This document shows, piece after piece, positions 7,683 through 61,533 of a stretch of DNA of 64,000 nucleotides (positions are counted from its first letter, which is position 1; every line of letters begins with the position of its first letter). The stretch lies in NCBI RefSeq assembly GCF_050320075.1, contig NZ_CP190018.1, one strand, 5' to 3'. Below the pieces are notes generated by a model. That model saw nothing but the letters and a program-made list of their open reading frames with translations, was not told where the DNA came from and did no database searches. The DNA is from Escherichia coli (GTDB lineage Bacteria > Pseudomonadota > Gammaproteobacteria > Enterobacterales > Enterobacteriaceae). A program made the translations under genes and the position numbers.

Positions 7683-10600
7683 TTAATATTTCATTCTTGC
7701 TGGCAAGCCCAACTCTTTACGAAATGGGTTTTCATATTTATCAACATTAGCCATCGAGTCAGTTCCATCGTCTTTCATTCCCTTTGCATGCCCCATTTCA
7801 TGCGCAAGAACCACACTCAACAGAGTGGGTTTCATGGCACATGCTTTGTTTTTTCCTTGATATACACATGAGCTATGGTCGTTATCAATATCAATGTAAA
7901 AACTATATTCAGTATCATCGTAGCATGTTTGGTTTATGCCTTTTCTTAATCCTCTAAATATATATTCATGCTCTGATGACTCTAATTCTTCTGTTATTTT
8001 ATGTCCAAACTTTGTTTCTGCTACAGCTTTATATGCTTCTTTTAAAGTTTTTTGTGTACTTTCATCTCCCTGAAAAGACACTTTTAACCCTAATGGATCG
8101 AAACCAGATACCGGATTCAACGGATACTGATAAAAATTCCATCCCCCCTTAAGCCCAATCGGATCCTGAGTGATATACCGCCCCTGCAGCGGGTCATAAT
8201 AGCGGTGGCGGTTGTAATAGAGGCCGGACTCCTCATCATACTGCTGACCCGGCAGGCGGATGAGCTGCTGCAGCTGGTGCGGGTTCTCTTCATTCAGCAG
8301 GTTGCCCCATTCATCGTATTCTGCGCACCATTCTGTTGCCCCTTCCGTGCTGACAAGCGCCAGCGGCAGGCCGCGATGGTCGCAGTGGTACAGGTGGATT
8401 TTTCGCGCCGGCGTGTACACCGGGTCCATCTGGTTTTGTATCTGCTCCACCGTCAGGCCGCACGATGCCAGCCAGCGGCGGCTTTCCTCACTCACCCGGT
8501 CAGCCAGGATTTCACTTTCCAGCCGGTCGAGCATCTGCACCAGCACCGGCGGGAACACCACACTGCCACCGTCTTCACCGCCGGACTGCTGAAGCGCATC
8601 CGCCAGGCTGCGGCGCTGCGTTTTCGCCAGCTCACCGGTGGCAGTTTCAACTCTGATGAGTGGCGTGAAGCTCCCCGGCTGATAAACCGTCTGGATGCGG
8701 GTTCTGTCGTTCTGTATTGTGGTCAGCCGGTCGCCGTCCCAGCCGTACCAGGTCACTTCCGGTTTCCGTGACAGCGACATCCAGCCCGTCAGGTCCCGTT
8801 CACGCCGCCACACCCGTTTTGCCACCCTGCGGCCCAGCGGGTCGTAAAGATAGCGACTTTCGACCAGCGGCTCTGCATATTGTGTCCGCGTGTAGTGCAC
8901 CAGCCGGTGCCGGCTGTCGTAATGATACCGGTGAGTCCGCTCATCATCCGTGCGGATAACCCCTTCCGGGATGAGGTCGGTTTTCTCTGTCAGCCTGCCG
9001 TGACGGTCATACCGGTAAAGATAGTGCGCGTCACGGGCGATACGGTTATCCGGCCACATGCTGAGGGTGCTGTCCGGGTGCAGCTCCGGGTCGGGCAGGC
9101 GGTTGCCTGCCGGGTCCGTGGCATACGGGATGCGGATATCCAGGTTCGCTGCCGTGGTGTGGACGCCGGTCAGCCTGCCGGTGTCGCTGTAGCTGTAACT
9201 CCGGGTCTGGCGCGGGCTGCTGATGCGGATGAGTTCGCCGTTGTCGTTCCAGGTGTAATCGCGGTCATACTGCAGGCTGTTCAGGTGCTGGCTCTGTAAC
9301 TGCCCGGCAGAGGTGTAAGCGGTGGTGAGTTCATAACGGCCGAAGCTGCGCAGCGTTTCCCGGTGCAGGCGGTCGCGGGTGTACTCCACCAGCGGTGTGT
9401 CGCCGAGTTTCATGCCTGACAGCCAGCCGCTGCCGTAGGTCAGCCATTCCACGGCGGGCAGGCTGTCCGGTATACAGCGGTTCGCCAGTCCCTGCGCGTT
9501 GTAAGCGTGTCTGGTTTCATGCTGCCAGAGCAGTGCTTCCGTCTGCGGGTGATGCACCGTCTGGCGCTCACCGGTCAGGCGGCCTTTCTCATCATACCCG
9601 TAATGCACCGTCACCCGGTGGCCTTCGCTGAGATGGCTGATGCCTGTCAGCCAGCCGCGTTCGTCATACTGCCACTGCTCTGCCGGTTCACCATTCACCG
9701 TTCGCTGTGTGATGCGGTCTGCTTCGTCATAGTGCCAGTGGGTGACCAGCCCCTCATCCTCGCTGCGGATAAGTTTGCCGGTCAGGTCGTGGTGATAACG
9801 CTGTGTGCGGCCGTCAAAGCCGGTTTCCTGTATCAGCCGGTCAAGTACATCGTAACGGAAGGTGGTGTGGCTGCCGTTTTCACTGGTCAGGCGGATGACC
9901 CGCCCGGCAGCATCGTATTCCATACTGCGCGTCAGACCGCCCTGCGTGGTACGAACGGGCTTTCCCCACGCATCGTACTGTGTCCCGTTTCTGCTGCCGT
10001 CCGGGGCAATGACGGCGGTCAGGTCACCGGCGGCGTTGTATTCATACCGCGTTTCATGGCCCTGCGTGTCTTTCACCGCAATTAACTGTCCACGGCTGTC
10101 GTATGCGCGGTACTGACTCAGCCCTTCCTCGCGGTGCACCGCCGTCATCTGACCAAAACGGTCATGGTCATAACGGGTTACATAACCGGAACAGTCAGTG
10201 ACGGTCAGCAACTGACCGTAACGGCTCCATGTCATGGTTTTCCGGCTGCCGGTGGCATCCTCCGTTGCGCAGGGTAAGTCACTGTGTGGATTATCATAAC
10301 GGTAGCGGGTGATATCGCCGTTGTGTGCGGTTTCCTGAATCAGACGGCCGGATTCATCATATTCCCGGCGCAATTCCAGCCCGTCAGGCCCGGTGGCTGA
10401 CGTTAACTGGCTGTGGTGGTTATAGTAAAATGCCGATGCCCTGCCATCCGGTGTGGTGATGCGCGTGATGAGTCCCGTCACCACATCCGGGCTGTACTCA
10501 GTCGTCCGGCCTGCGGCATCCGTCTGTGCCTTAAGCCTGCCCACCGCGTCAAACTGACTCTGCGTGACGCTGCCGTCCGCGTGTTCCTTTTTCACCACCC

Positions 10601-11825
10601 GCTTCAGCCCGCCTTCGCCCTGCGTGTGCAGCACTTCACGGCGGTCCAGACTGTCGGTGATGGTGATGCGGTCTTTCTCATACTGATACGTGTAGCTTAA
10701 GCCTGCCGGGTTTAGCTGCTCTGTCACCCGCCCGTCGCTGTCGTAACGGTAACGGATTTCTGGCCGGCCCGCGCGGTGGTGCGCCACCATCCGGCCCCGG
10801 TATTTATCATCGTAAGTAAAGCTGCGCACCTGTTTGCCACTGCGGTCATACACCGCCGCCAGTTCGCCGCGTGGCGTCCAGCCATAGCGCACCAGCGGCG
10901 CGGCAGGTAAATTCTCCGGGTATTCCGGGTCGTGTGTCAGCCACACGGCAGACAGACGGATACCGTTGTCCCGGCCATATTCCGTGTAGTCCGGCAGGGT
11001 ATCAGGAAAAGCGGACGGTTCCGTCCCGCCGGAAGAGGCCTGCTGCCGGGCCTCTTCTGCCCGCTGCGCCTGCGTGGTCAGTACCAGCCGGAAGTGACGC
11101 CCGGCACCATCCGTCACGCCGGTGATTTCGCCGCTGAATTCACCGCCAGCCTCACGGTGAAACGTCTGTGTGCGCCCGAAGCGGTCCACCAGCCCGGTCA
11201 GTACCCGGTACGGCGGCAGCGGCGCGGGCAGCACCTCATCCGCTTCCGGCACCCGCTCACACCAGCCGAGCAGCCACCACGGCCCCTGCGGACTGTTTGT
11301 CGCCAGATAACGATGCGGACTTAAGCGGAGTTCTTCCGGCAGCGCCTGCCAGAGTGCGGTCAGCCGGTGACCTTCATCCAGTTTCAGGACACCGCCACGC
11401 ACCAGCCAGAGTGACTCGCTGCGGCTGTAACCGTCCTCACCGGGAAACAGGTGCTCAAAATACAGGCTCCTGCCGCCGTTATCACTGAGTATCAGTGTGT
11501 TATCGCGCAGCTGTAGGCGGATATCCGCAGGCATTTTCCAGCCGGGGCCGAGGCTCCCCACCGGCGCGGGCGTTTTTGTCCGGTAACTGCTGTAGGTGCG
11601 GGAGAGGATGAACGGCAGCGGGCCGGGCAGGGCAAGGTCGGTTTCGCCGGGAAGGACCTTCGCGCCGAGCAGCGGATTGACCGGATGGCCGGACGTCACC
11701 CCGCCGGGGCACACCGAACAGGCCACGCCGGTGGGGGCACCGATGCGCACCCCGGCTGAACCCTGGACAATGCTACCGCCATACTGCGTCATGTCGCCCT
11801 GACGCGCCGCCGGTTTTCCGCTCAT
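7683..11825 (-). CDS. rhsA: Rhs-family polymorphic toxin (1380 aa) with PAAR-like N-terminus, YD-repeat core and variable C-terminal toxin tip
   Basis: N-terminus [11 protein letters not shown]..., many YD repeats, core ends ...[28 protein letters not shown]; the gene symbol reflects locus position (next to yibF-selAB), not the toxin type. Confidence 0.9.
7686..8084 (-). other. Rhs C-terminal toxin domain (133 aa after DPLGL) with HExxHxxGxxD motif
   Basis: Motif [12 protein letters not shown] encoded at 7770-7802; sharp drop to AT-rich composition begins at the DPLGL boundary (8085-8099). Confidence 0.6.
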
Positions 11826-12053
11826 CTGCTCATCCTTGTTTTATCGGGTTATTTGTCTGCTGACAGGCGAAACCCTACAGATTTATAAGAAAGCCTTAAG
11901 TGAGATATCTGTCAGATAAGAACAATTAGGAAAATATTTATATCACCATGATAAATATGTGATTTATTGGGAAGTAACAAACCATCAACATTTTCTGCCC
12001 TTTTTCCCATCACCAGGCCATACTGATATTTTTCCTCGCACAAAGGACTCGGC

Positions 12054-12662
12054 ATGAAACTCGTCGGTAGCTACACCAGCCCGTTTGTACGCAAACTTTC
12101 TATTCTGTTGTTAGAAAAGGGCATAACTTTCGAATTTATTAATGAACTGCCCTATAACGCGGACAACGGCGTGGCGCAATTTAACCCGTTAGGAAAAGTG
12201 CCGGTGCTGGTGACCGAAGAGGGCGAATGCTGGTTTGATTCGCCGATCATCGCTGAATATATTGAATTAATGAATGTCGCTCCGGCGATGTTGCCGCGCG
12301 ATCCGCTGGAGTCGTTGCGGGTGCGCAAAATTGAGGCGCTGGCGGATGGCATTATGGATGCCGGACTGGTATCGGTGCGTGAACAGGCGCGTCCGGCGGC
12401 GCAGCAGTCTGAAGATGAATTGTTACGCCAGCGGGAGAAAATCAACCGCAGTCTGGATGTGCTGGAAGGATATCTGGTCGATGGCACACTCAAAACCGAT
12501 ACGGTCAATCTGGCGACTATCGCCATTGCCTGTGCCGTCGGATATCTCAATTTCCGCCGCGTTGCGCCAGGTTGGTGTGTCGACCGCCCACACTTAGTCA
12601 AACTGGTCGAAAACCTGTTTAGCCGCGAAAGTTTTGCTCGCACCGAACCGCCAAAGGCTTGA
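12054..12662 (+). CDS. yibF: Glutathione S-transferase-like protein YibF (202 aa)
   Basis: 202-aa ORF recognised as YibF; divergent from rhs. Confidence 0.88.
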
Positions 12663-48830: not shown

Positions 48831-50285
48831 ATGTATATCGGGATAGATCTTGGCACCTCGGGCGTAAAAGTTATTTTGCTCAACGAGCAGGGCGAGGTGG
48901 TTGCTGCGCAAACGGAAAAGCTGACCGTTTCGCGCCCGCATCCACTCTGGTCGGAACAAGACCCGGAACAGTGGTGGCAGGCAACTGATCGCGCAATGAA
49001 AGCCCTGGGCGATCAGCATTCTCTGCAGGACGTTAAAGCATTGGGTATTGCCGGCCAGATGCACGGTGCAACCTTACTGGATGCCCAGCAACGGTTATTA
49101 CGCCCTGCCATTTTGTGGAACGACGGGCGCTGTGCGCAAGAGTGCGCTTTGCTGGAAGCGCGAGTTCCGCAATCGCGGGTGATTACCGGTAACCTGATGA
49201 TGCCCGGATTTACTGCGCCTAAATTGCTATGGGTTCAGCGGCATGAGCCGGAGATATTCCGTCAAATCGACAAAGTATTGTTACCGAAAGATTACTTGCG
49301 TCTGCGTATGACGGGGGAGTTTGCCAGCGATATGTCTGACGCAGCTGGCACCATGTGGCTGGATGTCGCAAAGCGTGACTGGAGTGACGACATGCTGCAG
49401 GCTTGCCACTTATCTCGTGACCAGATGCCCGCATTATACGAAGGCAGCGAAATTACTGGTGCTTTGCTACCTGAAGTTGCGAAAGCGTGGGGTATGGCGG
49501 CGGTGCCAGTTGTCGCAGGCGGTGGTGATAATGCAGCTGGTGCGGTTGGTGTAGGAATGGTTGATGCTAATCAGGCAATGTTATCGCTGGGGACGTCGGG
49601 AGTCTATTTTGCTGTCAGCGAAGGGTTCTTAAGCAAGCCAGAAAGCGCCGTACACAGCTTTTGCCATGCGCTACCGCAGCGTTGGCATTTAATGTCTGTG
49701 ATGCTGAGTGCAGCGTCGTGTCTGGATTGGGCTGCGAAATTAACGGGCCTGAACAATGTCCCAGCTTTAATCGCGGCTGCTCAACAGGCTGATGAAAGTG
49801 CCGAGCCAGTTTGGTTTCTGCCTTATCTTTCCGGCGAGCGTACACCACACAATAATCCCCAGGCGAAGGGGGTTTTCTTTGGTTTGACTCATCAACATGG
49901 CCCCAATGAACTGGCGCGAGCAGTGCTGGAAGGCGTGGGTTATGCGCTGGCAGATGGCATGGATGTCGTGCATGCCTGCGGCATTAAACCGCAAAGTGTT
50001 ACGTTGATTGGTGGCGGGGCGCGTAGTGAGTACTGGCGTCAGATGCTGACGGATATCAGCGGTCAGCAACTCGATTACCGCACGGGGGGGGATGTGGGGC
50101 CAGCACTGGGCGCAGCAAGGCTGGCGCAGATTGCGGCGAATCCAGAGAAATCGCTCATTGAGTTGTTGCCACAACTGCCGTTAGAACAGTCGCATCTACC
50201 AGATGCGCAGCGTTATGCCGCTTATCAGCCACGACGAGAAACGTTCCGTCGCCTCTATCAGCAACTTCTGCCATTAATGGCGTAA
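48831..50285 (+). CDS. xylB: Xylulokinase (484 aa)
   Basis: FGGY kinase; recognised as XylB. Confidence 0.93.
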   Translation: MYIGIDLGTSGVKVILLNEQGEVVAAQTEKLTVSRPHPLWSEQDPEQWWQATDRAMKALGDQHSLQDVKALGIAGQMHGATLLDAQQRLLRPAILWNDGRCAQECALLEARVPQSRVITGNLMMPGFTAPKLLWVQRHEPEIFRQIDKVLLPKDYLRLRMTGEFASDMSDAAGTMWLDVAKRDWSDDMLQACHLSRDQMPALYEGSEITGALLPEVAKAWGMAAVPVVAGGGDNAAGAVGVGMVDANQAMLSLGTSGVYFAVSEGFLSKPESAVHSFCHALPQRWHLMSVMLSAASCLDWAAKLTGLNNVPALIAAAQQADESAEPVWFLPYLSGERTPHNNPQAKGVFFGLTHQHGPNELARAVLEGVGYALADGMDVVHACGIKPQSVTLIGGGARSEYWRQMLTDISGQQLDYRTGGDVGPALGAARLAQIAANPEKSLIELLPQLPLEQSHLPDAQRYAAYQPRRETFRRLYQQLLPLMA

Positions 50286-50381
50286 ACGTTATCCCCTGCC
50301 TGACCGGGTGGGGGATAATTCACATCTATATATATCAGTAATTAATTAATATTTAGTATGAATTTAGGTAATGACTCCAAC

Positions 50382-50885
50382 TTACTGATAGTGTTTTATG
50401 TTCAGATAATGCCCGATGACTTTGTCATGCAGCTCCACCGATTTTGAGAACGACAGTGACTTCCGTCCCAGCCTTGCCAGATGTTGTCTCAGATTCAGGT
50501 TATGTCGCTCAATGCGCTGAGTGTAACGCTTGCTGATTACGTGCAGCTTTCCCTTCAGGCGGGATTCATACAGCGGCCAGCCATCCGTCATCCATACCAC
50601 GACCTCAAAGGCCGACAGCAGGCTCAGAAGACGCTCCAGTGTGGCCAGAGTGCGTTCACCGAAGACGTGCGCCACAACCGTCCTCCGTATCCTGTCATAC
50701 GCGTAAAACAGCCAGCGCTGACGTGATTTAGCACCGACGTAGCCCCACTGTTCGTCCATTTCAGCGCAGACAATCACATCACTGCCCGGCTGTATGCGCG
50801 AGGTTACCGACTGCGGCCTGAGTTTTTTAAGTGACGTAAAATCGTGTTGAGGCCAACGCCCATAATGCGGGCGGTTGCCCGGCAT
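50382..50885 (-). CDS. insB: IS1 InsB reading frame (167 aa; transposase made as InsAB' by frameshift)
   Basis: Recognised IS1 InsB sequence overlapping the insA 3' end. Confidence 0.9.
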
Positions 50886-51079
50886 CCAACACCATTCATG
50901 GCCATATCAATGATTTTCTGGTGTGTACCGGGTTGAGAAGCGGTGTAAGTGAACTGCAGTTGCCATGTTTTACGGCAGTGAGAGCAGAGATAGCGCTGAT
51001 GTCCGGCAGTACTTTTACCGTTACGCACCACGCCTTCAGTAGCTGAGCAGGAGGGACAACTGATGGAGATGGAAGCCAC
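50804..51079 (-). CDS. insA: IS1 InsA (91 aa)
   Basis: [43 protein letters not shown]... zinc-finger/HTH protein of IS1. Confidence 0.92.
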
Positions 51080-51146
51080 GGGAGCACCTCAAAAACACCA
51101 TCATACACTAAATCAGTAAGTTGGCACCATTACCCCGGGCTTTTAT

Positions 51147-52142
51147 TTAACTCACTAGTCTGTTTCTGTCGATTCGTTGTACCAGCATAGAAAGTAACAA
51201 ACTCGCTGCCAACGTCGCGCAAAAGATCCAAATAATATCGAGTATTGGCCAGTTTTTAAGCTCAATCCCCCGGGTGCGCAGTGCATGGATAATCAAGGCG
51301 TGGAATCCGTATATACCCAACGAATGGCGGGAGATTAAGCCAAGTCCGCGAACGGTACGCGTATCAAGCGTGTTTTTAACCAGAGTCAATAGCGTGATTG
51401 CGCAGATAAAAACCATCGGCCCACAGTAAAGATACCAGGTATCGGCAAAATTTCCGCGCCACTGCAATTCATATAATGTCCCGCGAGAGATAATAAAAAC
51501 CCCCGTCGCAAACAGTGCGGCGCTCCCCCACGACAGTGCTTTATGCTGTGTGTCCATCATCCCTATAGCGCGGCCCAACATGCCATAAAGGATGTAGTAA
51601 AAAGTATCGCCATTGATATATAAGTTAATTGGCAGCCATTCAAAACCGTCAATTTTCTGCGGCACTGTGTTTGGGTTAGCGATAATACCAATCACCACCA
51701 TTAGCACCAGCAACATTTTTCCGCCGACGTTCTTCACCTGAATCAGCGGTGAAACCAGATAAATCACCGCAATCGCGAAGAAAAACCACAAGTGGTAAAA
51801 CACTGGCTTTTGCAGCAGGTTTTTCAGCGCTAACTCCACATTGATGGAGGTAGACAGCGCAATGTAGAGCAGTGCGATTGCGCTATAAAAAAGCAGACAT
51901 AAGCCGATACGTAAAAAATGGCGCGGCTGGGCGCTGCGTTCGCCAAAAAAGAGATAGCCGGAAATCATGAAAAATAGCGGCACGCTGACACGAGAGGCAG
52001 AATTCAGAACATTGGCGATATCCCAGGTGACGGGGCTAACACTATGAGCATTGGTCACATACCAGGTAGTGGTGTGAATCATCACCACCATTAAACACGC
52101 TATCCCTCGCAGGTTATCAATCCAGTAAATTTTGGGCTGCAT
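51147..52142 (-). CDS. wecH: O-acetyltransferase WecH (acyltransferase-3 family membrane protein, 331 aa)
   Basis: 10-TM acyltransferase-3 profile; stop codon 12 bp from the IS1 end. Confidence 0.88.
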
Positions 52143-55754: not shown

Positions 55755-56007
55755 TCGCTAAATAATACAGCAACCTTTAATAATCTTCTGATGAATAAAG
55801 ATTATCTCATATATTAATTTTATGAGATTTTTTTAGGATTATATCAAGGAGAAGAAACGAACTTATTAAGCTAGAATAGCCACGGGTGCTTGAGACTGTT
55901 TGTCTCAGGTATTCACCGAAAGGCAGACAGAGAAAAGCCCCACCTGACTATAAATCAAAGTGTACTGCACCCATTTTGTTGGACGATGAAATGGAATAGC
56001 CCCTAAT

Positions 56008-56529
56008 ATGTCAAAGCCAAAATACCCTTTTGAAAAGCGCCTTGAAGTCGTGAATCACTACTTCACAACTGATGATGGTTACAGGATCATCTCGGCACGT
56101 TTTGGTGTCCCCCGAACCCAGGTCAGGACATGGGTTGCCCTCTATGAAAAACATGGAGAAAAAGGTTTAATTCCCAAACCTAAAGGCGTTAGTGCTGATC
56201 CAGAGTTGCGTATTAAGGTCGTGAAAGCTGTGATCGAGCAGCACATGTCCCTTAATCAGGCTGCTGCTCACTTTATGCTTGCTGGTAGTGGTTCTGTAGC
56301 CAGGTGGCTGAAGGTCTATGAAGAGCGCGGAGAAGCTGGTTTACGCGCGCTCAAGATTGGCACCAAAAGAAACATTGCAATATCAGTTGATCCAGAAAAA
56401 GCGGCATCAGCATTGGAGCTGTCAAAAGACCGACGCATTGAGGATCTTGAAAGGCAAGTTCGATTTCTTGAAACGCGGCTTATGTATCTAAAAAAGCTGA
56501 AAGCCTTAGCTCATCCCACGAAAAAGTAA
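56008..56529 (+). CDS. insJ: IS150 OrfA (InsJ, 173 aa)
   Basis: HTH protein ending ...LAHPTKK; stop overlaps the A-rich slippery run. Confidence 0.92.
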   Translation: MSKPKYPFEKRLEVVNHYFTTDDGYRIISARFGVPRTQVRTWVALYEKHGEKGLIPKPKGVSADPELRIKVVKAVIEQHMSLNQAAAHFMLAGSGSVARWLKVYEERGEAGLRALKIGTKRNIAISVDPEKAASALELSKDRRIEDLERQVRFLETRLMYLKKLKALAHPTKK

Positions 56530-57377
56530 AAGTACTCAACGAGCTAAGGCAGTTTTATCCTCTTGATGAGCTTCTCAGGGCTGCGGAGATACCGCGCAGT
56601 ACGTTTTATTACCATCTAAAGGCTCTCAGCAAGCCTGACAAGTATGCGGACGTTAAAAAGCGTATTGGTGAGATTTATCACGAGAATAGAGGCCGATACG
56701 GATACCGTAGGGTAACGCTGTCTCTTCATCGAGAAGGGAAACAGATTAACCATAAAGCTGTTCAGCGCCTGATGGGAACCCTCTCACTTAAAGCAGCGAT
56801 TAAGGTCAAGCGATACCGCTCTTACAGAGGAGAGGTAGGGCAAACCGCCCCTAATGTTCTCCAAAGAGATTTCAAGGCTACGCGGCCAAACGAGAAGTGG
56901 GTTACCGATGTTACTGAATTTGTAGTCAATGGGCGCAAGCTGTATTTGTCTCCAGTAATAGATCTCTTCAACAACGAAGTTATTTCTTACAGCCTTTCGG
57001 AAAGACCAGTGATGAACATGGTTGAGAATATGCTCGATCAGGCATTCAAAAAGCTTAATCCTCACGAGCATCCTGTTCTGCACTCTGACCAGGGATGGCA
57101 GTATCGTATGAGAAGATATCAAAATATCCTTAAAGAACATGGTATTAAACAAAGCATGTCCAGAAAAGGCAATTGTCTGGATAATGCTGTGGTGGAGTGT
57201 TTCTTTGGAACCTTAAAGTCGGAGTGTTTTTATCTTGATGAGTTCAGTAATATAAGCGAACTGAAGGATGCTGTTACGGAATATATTGAATACTACAACA
57301 GCAGAAGAATTAGCCTGAAATTAAAAGGTCTGACTCCAATTGAATATCGGAATCAGACCTATATGCCTCGTGTTTAA
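56526..57377 (+). CDS. insK: IS150 OrfB (InsK) transposase frame, expressed as OrfAB fusion by -1 frameshift
   Basis: -1 frame relative to insJ beginning at AAAAAG run (56521-56526); DDE integrase core (...HSDQGWQY..., ...[17 protein letters not shown]...). Confidence 0.88.
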
Positions 57378-57763
57378 CTGTCCAACTTTTTGGGGTCAGT
57401 ACAAAGTGAGGCCCCTCTATGCATAGACACCATAAGGTTAGCCTCTTACTCGTTGGAAATCAACACAGGGGGCTGGGAATGCCGCAGAAATATAGATTAC
57501 TTTCTTTAATAGTGATTTGTTGCACGCTTTTATTTTTCACCTGGATGATAAGTGATTCACTGTGTGAATTGCATATTAAACAGGGGAGTTATGAGCTGGC
57601 GGCATTTTTAGCCTGCAATTTGAAAGAGTAAGAGTCTTCGGCGGGAAGTTATTCCCGCCTTTCTTACGGCGTTGCGCATTCTCATTGCACCCAAATTTAT
57701 TTTTCACAAAAATAATAATAGATTTTATTACGCGATCGATTATTTATTTCCTGAAAAACAAAT

Positions 57764-60873: not shown

Positions 60874-61533
60874 TTACAGCGGGCTTAAGGTAATTTCTAC
60901 ACGGCGGTTTTGCGCCTTACCTTCTGCAGTGCTGTTGCTGGCGATTGGGTTAGCCGGGCCAAGGCCCTGAGTACGGATGCGGCTGGCGTCCACGCCCTGG
61001 GTGATCAACGCGCTGGCAACGGAATCCGCACGCTGCTGGGAGAGACGCATGTTCAGGTCGTGACCACCCGTGCTGTCGGTATAACCAATCACGTTAACCG
61101 CCGTTTTCGGATACTCTTTCAGCACCATTGCCACGCCGGTCAGGGTGTTAGCGCCTGCCGGTTTCAGGGTCGCGCTGCTGCTGTCGAAGGTCACATTGTT
61201 CGGCATATTGAGGATAATGTTATCCCCGCTGCGGGTTACGCTAACACCAGTGCCACGCATTTTGTCACGCAGCTTCGCTTCCTGCACATCCATGTAATAA
61301 CCCACGCCGCCGCCCAGAGCTGCACCCGCTGCTGCGCCAATCAGCGCGCCTTTACCGCGATCTTTCTTCGAAGAAGAGAGCGCACCAATACCCGCGCCAA
61401 CGAGAGAGCCCAGACCTGCGCCGATAGCAGATTTACCTGCTTCGCGTTCGCCGGTGTAAGGGTTAGTTGTGCAGCCAGATACCGCCAGAGCGCCACTCAC
61501 TACGGCGGCAATAAGATAAACACGTTTCTTCAT
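60874..61533 (-). CDS. yiaD: OmpA-domain lipoprotein YiaD (219 aa)
   Basis: Lipobox VSGC, Gly-rich segment, C-terminal OmpA-like domain. Confidence 0.88.
   Translation of the reverse strand: MKKRVYLIAAVVSGALAVSGCTTNPYTGEREAGKSAIGAGLGSLVGAGIGALSSSKKDRGKGALIGAAAGAALGGGVGYYMDVQEAKLRDKMRGTGVSVTRSGDNIILNMPNNVTFDSSSATLKPAGANTLTGVAMVLKEYPKTAVNVIGYTDSTGGHDLNMRLSQQRADSVASALITQGVDASRIRTQGLGPANPIASNSTAEGKAQNRRVEITLSPL

Follow-up and report, generated by a model that had tools for sequence, protein, structure and literature searches.

The window analysed here, a stretch of 64 kb of Escherichia coli DNA, carries a single IS1 element, which is located in the spacer between xylB and wecH. On the left side, an intact xylB gene (xylulokinase, 484 aa; 48831..50285, plus strand) was taken from the ORF list and has the Pfam domains FGGY_N and FGGY_C, and the 81 bp kept 3′ of it (50286..50366) are the same as in the intact relative MRSN346647 up to the IS1 junction. 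The last 8 bp of these 81 bp, tgaattta (50359-50366), are the surviving copy of an IS1 target. A complete IS1 of 768 bp follows (50367..51134), with its transposase genes on the minus strand, and a remnant of 12 bp (51135..51146), whose junction was mapped against the intact relative, leads from the element to the stop codon of wecH (O-acetyltransferase, 331 aa, intact; 51147..52142, minus strand; ORF list, Pfam Acyl_transf_3). Both xylB and wecH are annotated at the corresponding positions in two other genomes, Ec-U3 and YZLc1-3, which are sequence-identical to the window there. The boundaries of the element were set by three 100% identical copies elsewhere, of which one is bordered by a clean target duplication, and the original prediction, in which a complete 768-bp IS1 is separated from xylB by 81 bp and from the wecH stop codon by 12 bp, was confirmed in all these points.

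The element begins on the xylB side with its right inverted repeat (IRR) GGTAATGACTCCAACTTACTGAT (50367..50389, plus strand) and ends on the wecH side with its left inverted repeat (IRL) GGTAATGGTGCCAACTTACTGAT on the minus strand (51112..51134), which differ from the IRR and IRL of K-12 IS1A at one and two positions, respectively. The two ends match each other at 20 of 23 positions, so the few differences between them that had been pointed out in the original prediction do exist; imperfect inverted repeats are normal for IS1, and the ends of K-12 IS1A differ in a like manner. Between the ends, we found insA (91 aa; 50804..51079, minus strand), with the Pfam domains Zn_ribbon_InsA and HTH_Tnp_IS1, and the insB frame (167 aa; 50382..50885, minus strand), with DDE_Tnp_IS1 (E = 1e-74), both from the ORF list; the scores were 74.8 bits for PF03811, 106.6 bits for PF12759 and 249.1 bits for PF03400, all far above the cut-offs. 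The insB frame overlaps insA in the −1 frame and, as read from the sequence, is expressed as InsAB′ by a −1 frameshift; a script search located the A6C slippery motif, AAAAAAC on the minus strand, at 50822..50828, and this motif serves the programmed −1 frameshift in IS1 (PMC12903888). A promoter-like site inside the element (51127-51100, minus strand) coincides with the usual insA promoter region.

All of this agrees with the IS1 family, i.e. a length of ~768 bp, imperfect ends of ~23 bp starting with GGT(A/G)ATG, insA followed by insB in the −1 frame with A6C in the overlap, and Zn-ribbon, HTH and DDE domains. Compared with K-12 IS1A, the element aligns without gaps at 93.2% identity (52 base differences), and the proteins differ by 2 residues in InsA and 10 in InsB, whereas the copies in Ec-U3 and YZLc1-3 are 100% identical to it over all 768 positions. 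The window element is a known IS.

IS1 makes target duplications of 8 or 9 bp (PMC12903888), and one identical copy in YZLc1-3 has such a duplication, with the 8-bp sequence tgaattta on each side. The 9-mers abutting the IS1 of the window are atgaattta on the left and ccgggcttt on the right, and neither the 8-mers nor the 9-mers match; the window IS1 therefore has no target-site duplication (TSD). Upon re-inspection of the flanks, no 8- or 9-bp repeat and no misplacement of the element boundaries was found, in agreement with the original prediction, which had reported the same differing flanks. The direct repeat of 8-9 bp and the uninterrupted host sequence of a simple insertion are both absent at this element.

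The gene order in K-12 MG1655 is xylB-yiaB-yiaA-wecH, and yiaB and yiaA, whose products are small inner-membrane proteins of PF05360, are both absent from the window, as had been predicted, with the added detail that it is yiaB that adjoins xylB. MRSN346647 served as a better intact reference, the flanks of which are almost identical to those of the window and in which yiaB and yiaA are both intact. The two flanks of the window lie 940 bp apart in MRSN346647, so 940 bp were lost in the window, including all of yiaB and yiaA; the alignment to related strains thereby confirmed the loss of both genes and mapped its endpoints. The lost stretch runs from just past tgaattta, 81 bp 3′ of xylB, to the middle of the terminator hairpin between yiaA and wecH. 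In the intact relative, this terminator consists of an 11-pair hairpin, AAGCCCGGTCA-GTCCAATG-TGACCGGGCTT, followed by TTATTT, located after yiaA and facing wecH. Of the hairpin, the window keeps just the final 8 nt of its right arm (CCGGGCTT), together with the T-rich tail, at 51135-51146, and a scan of 50200-51300 found no remaining terminator-like site. Deletion of this sequence leaves wecH without most of the downstream hairpin that it formerly had in common with yiaA; with the hairpin mostly lost, wecH transcripts may read into the IRL of IS1.

We searched 5,426 complete E. coli genomes for the window arrangement in one aligned piece, and it was found in none of them. Two of these genomes match the window flanks perfectly, namely Ec-U3 (GCF_060473275.1, human urine, Burkina Faso) and YZLc1-3 (GCF_025583585.2, chicken, China). 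In Ec-U3, the IS1 has the same junction on the wecH side as the window but 206 bp more on the left, which include the start of yiaB and its codons 1-40; its left junction is ggcgtgtta|IS1 (L001 3174), and 734 bp are missing compared with MRSN346647. In YZLc1-3, which also keeps yiaB codons 1-40, the IS1 of the Ec-U3 type is accompanied by a second identical copy in the same orientation, located exactly at the left junction of the window. The two copies (L002 2522-3289 and 3504-4271) have 214 bp between them, and the left copy is bordered by tgaattta at L002 2514-2521 and 3290-3297. Among the complete genomes, the right junction of the window (120 bp in one piece) was matched at 100% only in Ec-U3 and YZLc1-3, and the left junction at 100% only in YZLc1-3, with a further match of 98.3% in the genome H32. 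Exact matches of the WecH protein in large assembly collections showed only the intact arrangement wecH-yiaA-yiaB-xylB, in the 24 longest-contig blocks of 7,640.

Outside IS1, five SNPs were counted over 63 kb in the three genomes, of which four are private to the window, one to YZLc1-3 and none to Ec-U3, so that Ec-U3 and YZLc1-3 differ from the window by 4-5 SNPs. Since there are only five SNPs over this length, the three genomes must be very recent relatives. There is no derived SNP common to the window and YZLc1-3 over the 63 kb, i.e. the pattern is a star, and Ec-U3, having no private SNP, looks like the ancestral state in this region. By position, the private SNPs of the window lie at 8568, 11360, 15466 and 30768, and coordinate mapping with the annotation of YZLc1-3 assigned two of them to the RHS core gene and the other two to selB and lyxK, one each; the SNP private to YZLc1-3 is at window position 61382.

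From these comparisons, the IS1 of the window is, as judged by its sequence and that of its relatives, an intact element on the scar of a stepwise IS1-associated deletion, and at least two steps appear to have been involved in the loss, an early one of 734 bp and a later one of 206 bp. In the first step, IS1 would have entered the yiaB-yiaA-wecH region, and an IS1-associated deletion would have taken 734 bp, between yiaB codon 40 and a point midway through the hairpin of the yiaA/wecH terminator, giving the state that is kept in Ec-U3. The element could have landed in yiaB with a rightward deletion, or in the terminator with a leftward deletion, and the precursor would have had this IS1 variant followed by ggcgtgttaatgac, or gtgaccgggcttt followed by this IS1 variant. 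Such a precursor, with this IS1 variant, its TSD and intact yiaBA, was not found in the 5,426 complete genomes or in the 24 longest-contig blocks with this WecH. In the second step, another identical IS1 would have inserted in the same orientation into the very AT-rich sequence tgaattta, 206 bp upstream, with an 8-bp duplication, and this state corresponds to the extant genome YZLc1-3. In the third step, homologous recombination between the two direct repeats of 768 bp would have removed one IS1 together with the 214 bp between them. The left flank of the remaining element would come from the newer insertion and its right flank from the older one, hence there is no target duplication. As the net outcome, yiaB, yiaA and most of the shared terminator would be gone, and xylB and wecH would stay intact.

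Recombination between two direct IS1 copies is the final step that we favour, and we consider it the probable one, because it takes a single transposition at tgaattta, which is seen in a sister genome, followed by an easy recombination event. The outer junctions of the two copies in YZLc1-3 are the same as both junctions of the single IS1 in the window, and when the 982-bp unit delimited by corresponding points in the two copies was removed in silico from YZLc1-3, the window sequence resulted at 100% over 7,255 bp. Because the two copies in YZLc1-3 do not differ at any position, the place of a crossover cannot be located, and given the star pattern of the SNPs, nothing shows that the lineage of the window passed through the two-copy state. 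Missing TSDs are usually due to recombination between IS copies or to adjacent deletions (PMC11708052). The original prediction had named these two processes, as opposed to a simple insertion, and it is supported by the presence of both precursor states in near-identical genomes.

The second of these processes, a direct adjacent deletion, yields a product identical to that of recombination. Here the IS1 of the Ec-U3 state would have transposed intramolecularly into tgaattta, 206 bp to its left, deleting the 206 bp and leaving one target copy beside the IRR, and YZLc1-3 would be a separate simple insertion at the same hot spot. Removing the 206 bp from Ec-U3 in silico also gave exactly the window sequence, over 6,701 bp, and the single-IS precursor of this explanation exists in Ec-U3, which has the same right junction, only the left one having moved; the window also has no TSD, as such a deletion would leave it. 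The absence of private SNPs from Ec-U3 over 63 kb is what one would expect of the common ancestral state, tgaattta is a recurrent IS1 site that was hit independently in the unrelated H32, where the orientation and the 8-bp duplication are the same, and the same spacer contains independent TSD-less IS1 deletions in the genomes ZH177 (451 bp) and 730V1 (243 bp). Moreover, adjacent deletions that grow stepwise have been documented for IS elements (PMC11708052). On the other hand, two independent events at one nucleotide in two sister strains would be required, whereas recombination needs one transposition and then a frequent event of the RecA type between 768-bp repeats that are 214 bp apart. We therefore regard direct deletion as a possible but less likely course, which is by no means far-fetched because the SNPs show no shared YZLc1-3 insertion and tgaattta is a hot spot.

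An assembly artefact, in which the true arrangement is that of YZLc1-3 (IS1, 214 bp, IS1) and was collapsed to one copy, would give a sequence equal to the one observed, and the absence of the window arrangement from the complete genomes would suit it. However, the window is contiguous across both IS1 and IS150, which implies repeat-spanning reads that would span the 982-bp unit too; the unique 214-bp segment would need to be dropped entirely, and the deletion itself is biologically easy and expected, so that we consider such an artefact very unlikely. A simple insertion of IS1 into a lineage in which yiaB and yiaA had never been present here, with subsequent decay of the target duplication, for which no supporting evidence was found, is virtually impossible and by sequence already refuted by the comparison with MRSN346647, since yiaB and yiaA are present at this position in K-12 and in this near-isogenic strain, codons 1-40 of yiaB are kept in Ec-U3 and YZLc1-3, the window flanks are positions 940 bp apart in the intact sequence, and the flanking 8-mers and 9-mers show no resemblance.

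IS1 was found in the 1-kb xylB-wecH spacer, in the orientation of the window, in ~20 complete genomes. In H32, an IS1 of this orientation lies exactly at tgaattta, the 8 bp of which are again duplicated (copies of tgaattta at L004 2653-2660 and 3429-3436), and yiaBA is intact. The IS1 variant of H32 is 95.3% identical to that of the window and its flanks are 97.6-97.9% identical to the reference, i.e. it belongs to a different background. That tgaattta twice gave a duplication of 8 bp and not 9 bp is a hint that the length of the duplication is determined by the target. Within 60 bp around the tgaattta site, the G+C content is 18%, and no IS1-end-like sequence above background was found near it (the best 17-mer matches at 11/17 and the best 23-mer at 13/23).

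The second recurrent site is the left junction of Ec-U3. In HCP17S3_I4, an IS1A (93.2% identical; L010 2768-3535) lies exactly at this junction; its orientation is the same, and the 9 bp ggcgtgtta are duplicated. This site in yiaB overlaps GTTAATGACAGCAACTT, which matches the IRR of IS1 at 14 of 17 positions and is located in MRSN346647 at L011 2646-2662 on the minus strand, around yiaB codons ~39-44. A match of 14/17 to the IRR is expected 0.01 times in the 5-kb MRSN346647 locus, and none of the 126,432 background 17-mers in the window reached this score. In two unrelated lineages, one with Ec-U3 and YZLc1-3 and the other with HCP17S3_I4, IS1 inserted 4 nt into GTTAATGACAGCAACTT. We considered formation of the Ec-U3 left junction by a homologous crossover between the IRR and GTTAATGACAGCAACTT and rejected it, since the junction and the mimic are out of register by 4 nt and HCP17S3_I4 has a true 9-bp duplication there; the offset of 4 nt thus points to target choice and not to homologous crossover.

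The sequence caccggcct at the beginning of yiaA is a third recurrent site, occupied in two genomes. In 2018-11-1BCC, an IS1B is located there with a 9-bp duplication (L014 2369-3136), and in MZ1211 a complete, inverted IS1A and a 295-bp fragment of IS1 adjoin each other at this site (L015 2368-3430). In CB7286, an IS1B bordered by a 9-bp duplication of gcccggtca interrupts the left arm of the hairpin of the yiaA/wecH terminator (L005 1893-2660), ~20 bp from the right junction of the window. The TSD-less deletion in ZH177 (IS1 at L012 1922-2689) covers the coding sequence of yiaB plus the beginning of yiaA, and that in 730V1 (IS1 at L013 1493-2260) lies inside yiaA.

By these sequence comparisons, the left-hand endpoints of both the window and Ec-U3 coincide with recurrent IS1 target sites. 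We suppose, about as readily as not, that the spacer has nucleotide-exact and orientation-specific IS1 hot spots at tgaattta, ggcgtgtta and caccggcct, with a near-deterministic choice of target and with deletions stepping between hot spots. If this stepping is true, the window would form, together with Ec-U3 and YZLc1-3, a complete natural series in which one IS1 nibbles its surroundings. Galas, Calos and Miller reportedly linked IS1 hot spots to homology with the ends of IS1 in 1980. A preference of IS1 for A+T-rich DNA is indicated by the titles of Meyer, Iida and Arber 1980 and of Matsutani 1997 as cited in PMC12903888. Like the A+T-rich and the end-like hot spots of IS1, tgaattta is located in DNA of low G+C content and ggcgtgtta at a mimic of the IRR, the two sites here having been recognised by genome comparison; in a literature search, the tgaattta and ggcgtgtta sites were not found described as IS1 hot spots. 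The three candidate hot spots are offered for the study of IS1 target choice.

The event in the window is of an already known, ordinary kind of IS-associated deletion. As in other TSD-less deletions associated with IS elements, an intact IS is located where sequence was lost, one junction is as in the precursor and the deletion grew stepwise, and deletions at IS150 in the long-term evolution experiment also grew in steps (PMC11708052). The mechanism is no different from these known cases, and the locus is unusual only in that natural isolates keep both precursor states; it is a clean example of how a TSD-less IS originates, with both precursors in sequenced isolates, and has little significance beyond strain annotation. 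Since yiaB and yiaA were lost here, both genes are dispensable in a natural E. coli lineage. The ~20 genomes with IS1 in the spacer, together with the deletions in ZH177 and 730V1, indicate that IS1 has repeatedly removed or disrupted yiaB and yiaA and that this is evidently tolerated; on the function of the two genes, a literature search found only an example of mutant Lrp binding.

Two further regions of the window were noted. At ~7683-12500, homology with the annotation of YZLc1-3 places a gene for an RHS element core protein and, after it, several small ORFs, among them an immunity gene of the Imm57 family. In the region ~55884-57631, an IS150 is located between glyS and hokA, with its transposase frames at 56008-56529 and 56772-57377 and with hokA just after it; an Rfam match to the sok antitoxin (55884-56037) extends into the start of IS150, and the arrangement glyS-IS150-hokA is common to the window, Ec-U3 and YZLc1-3.
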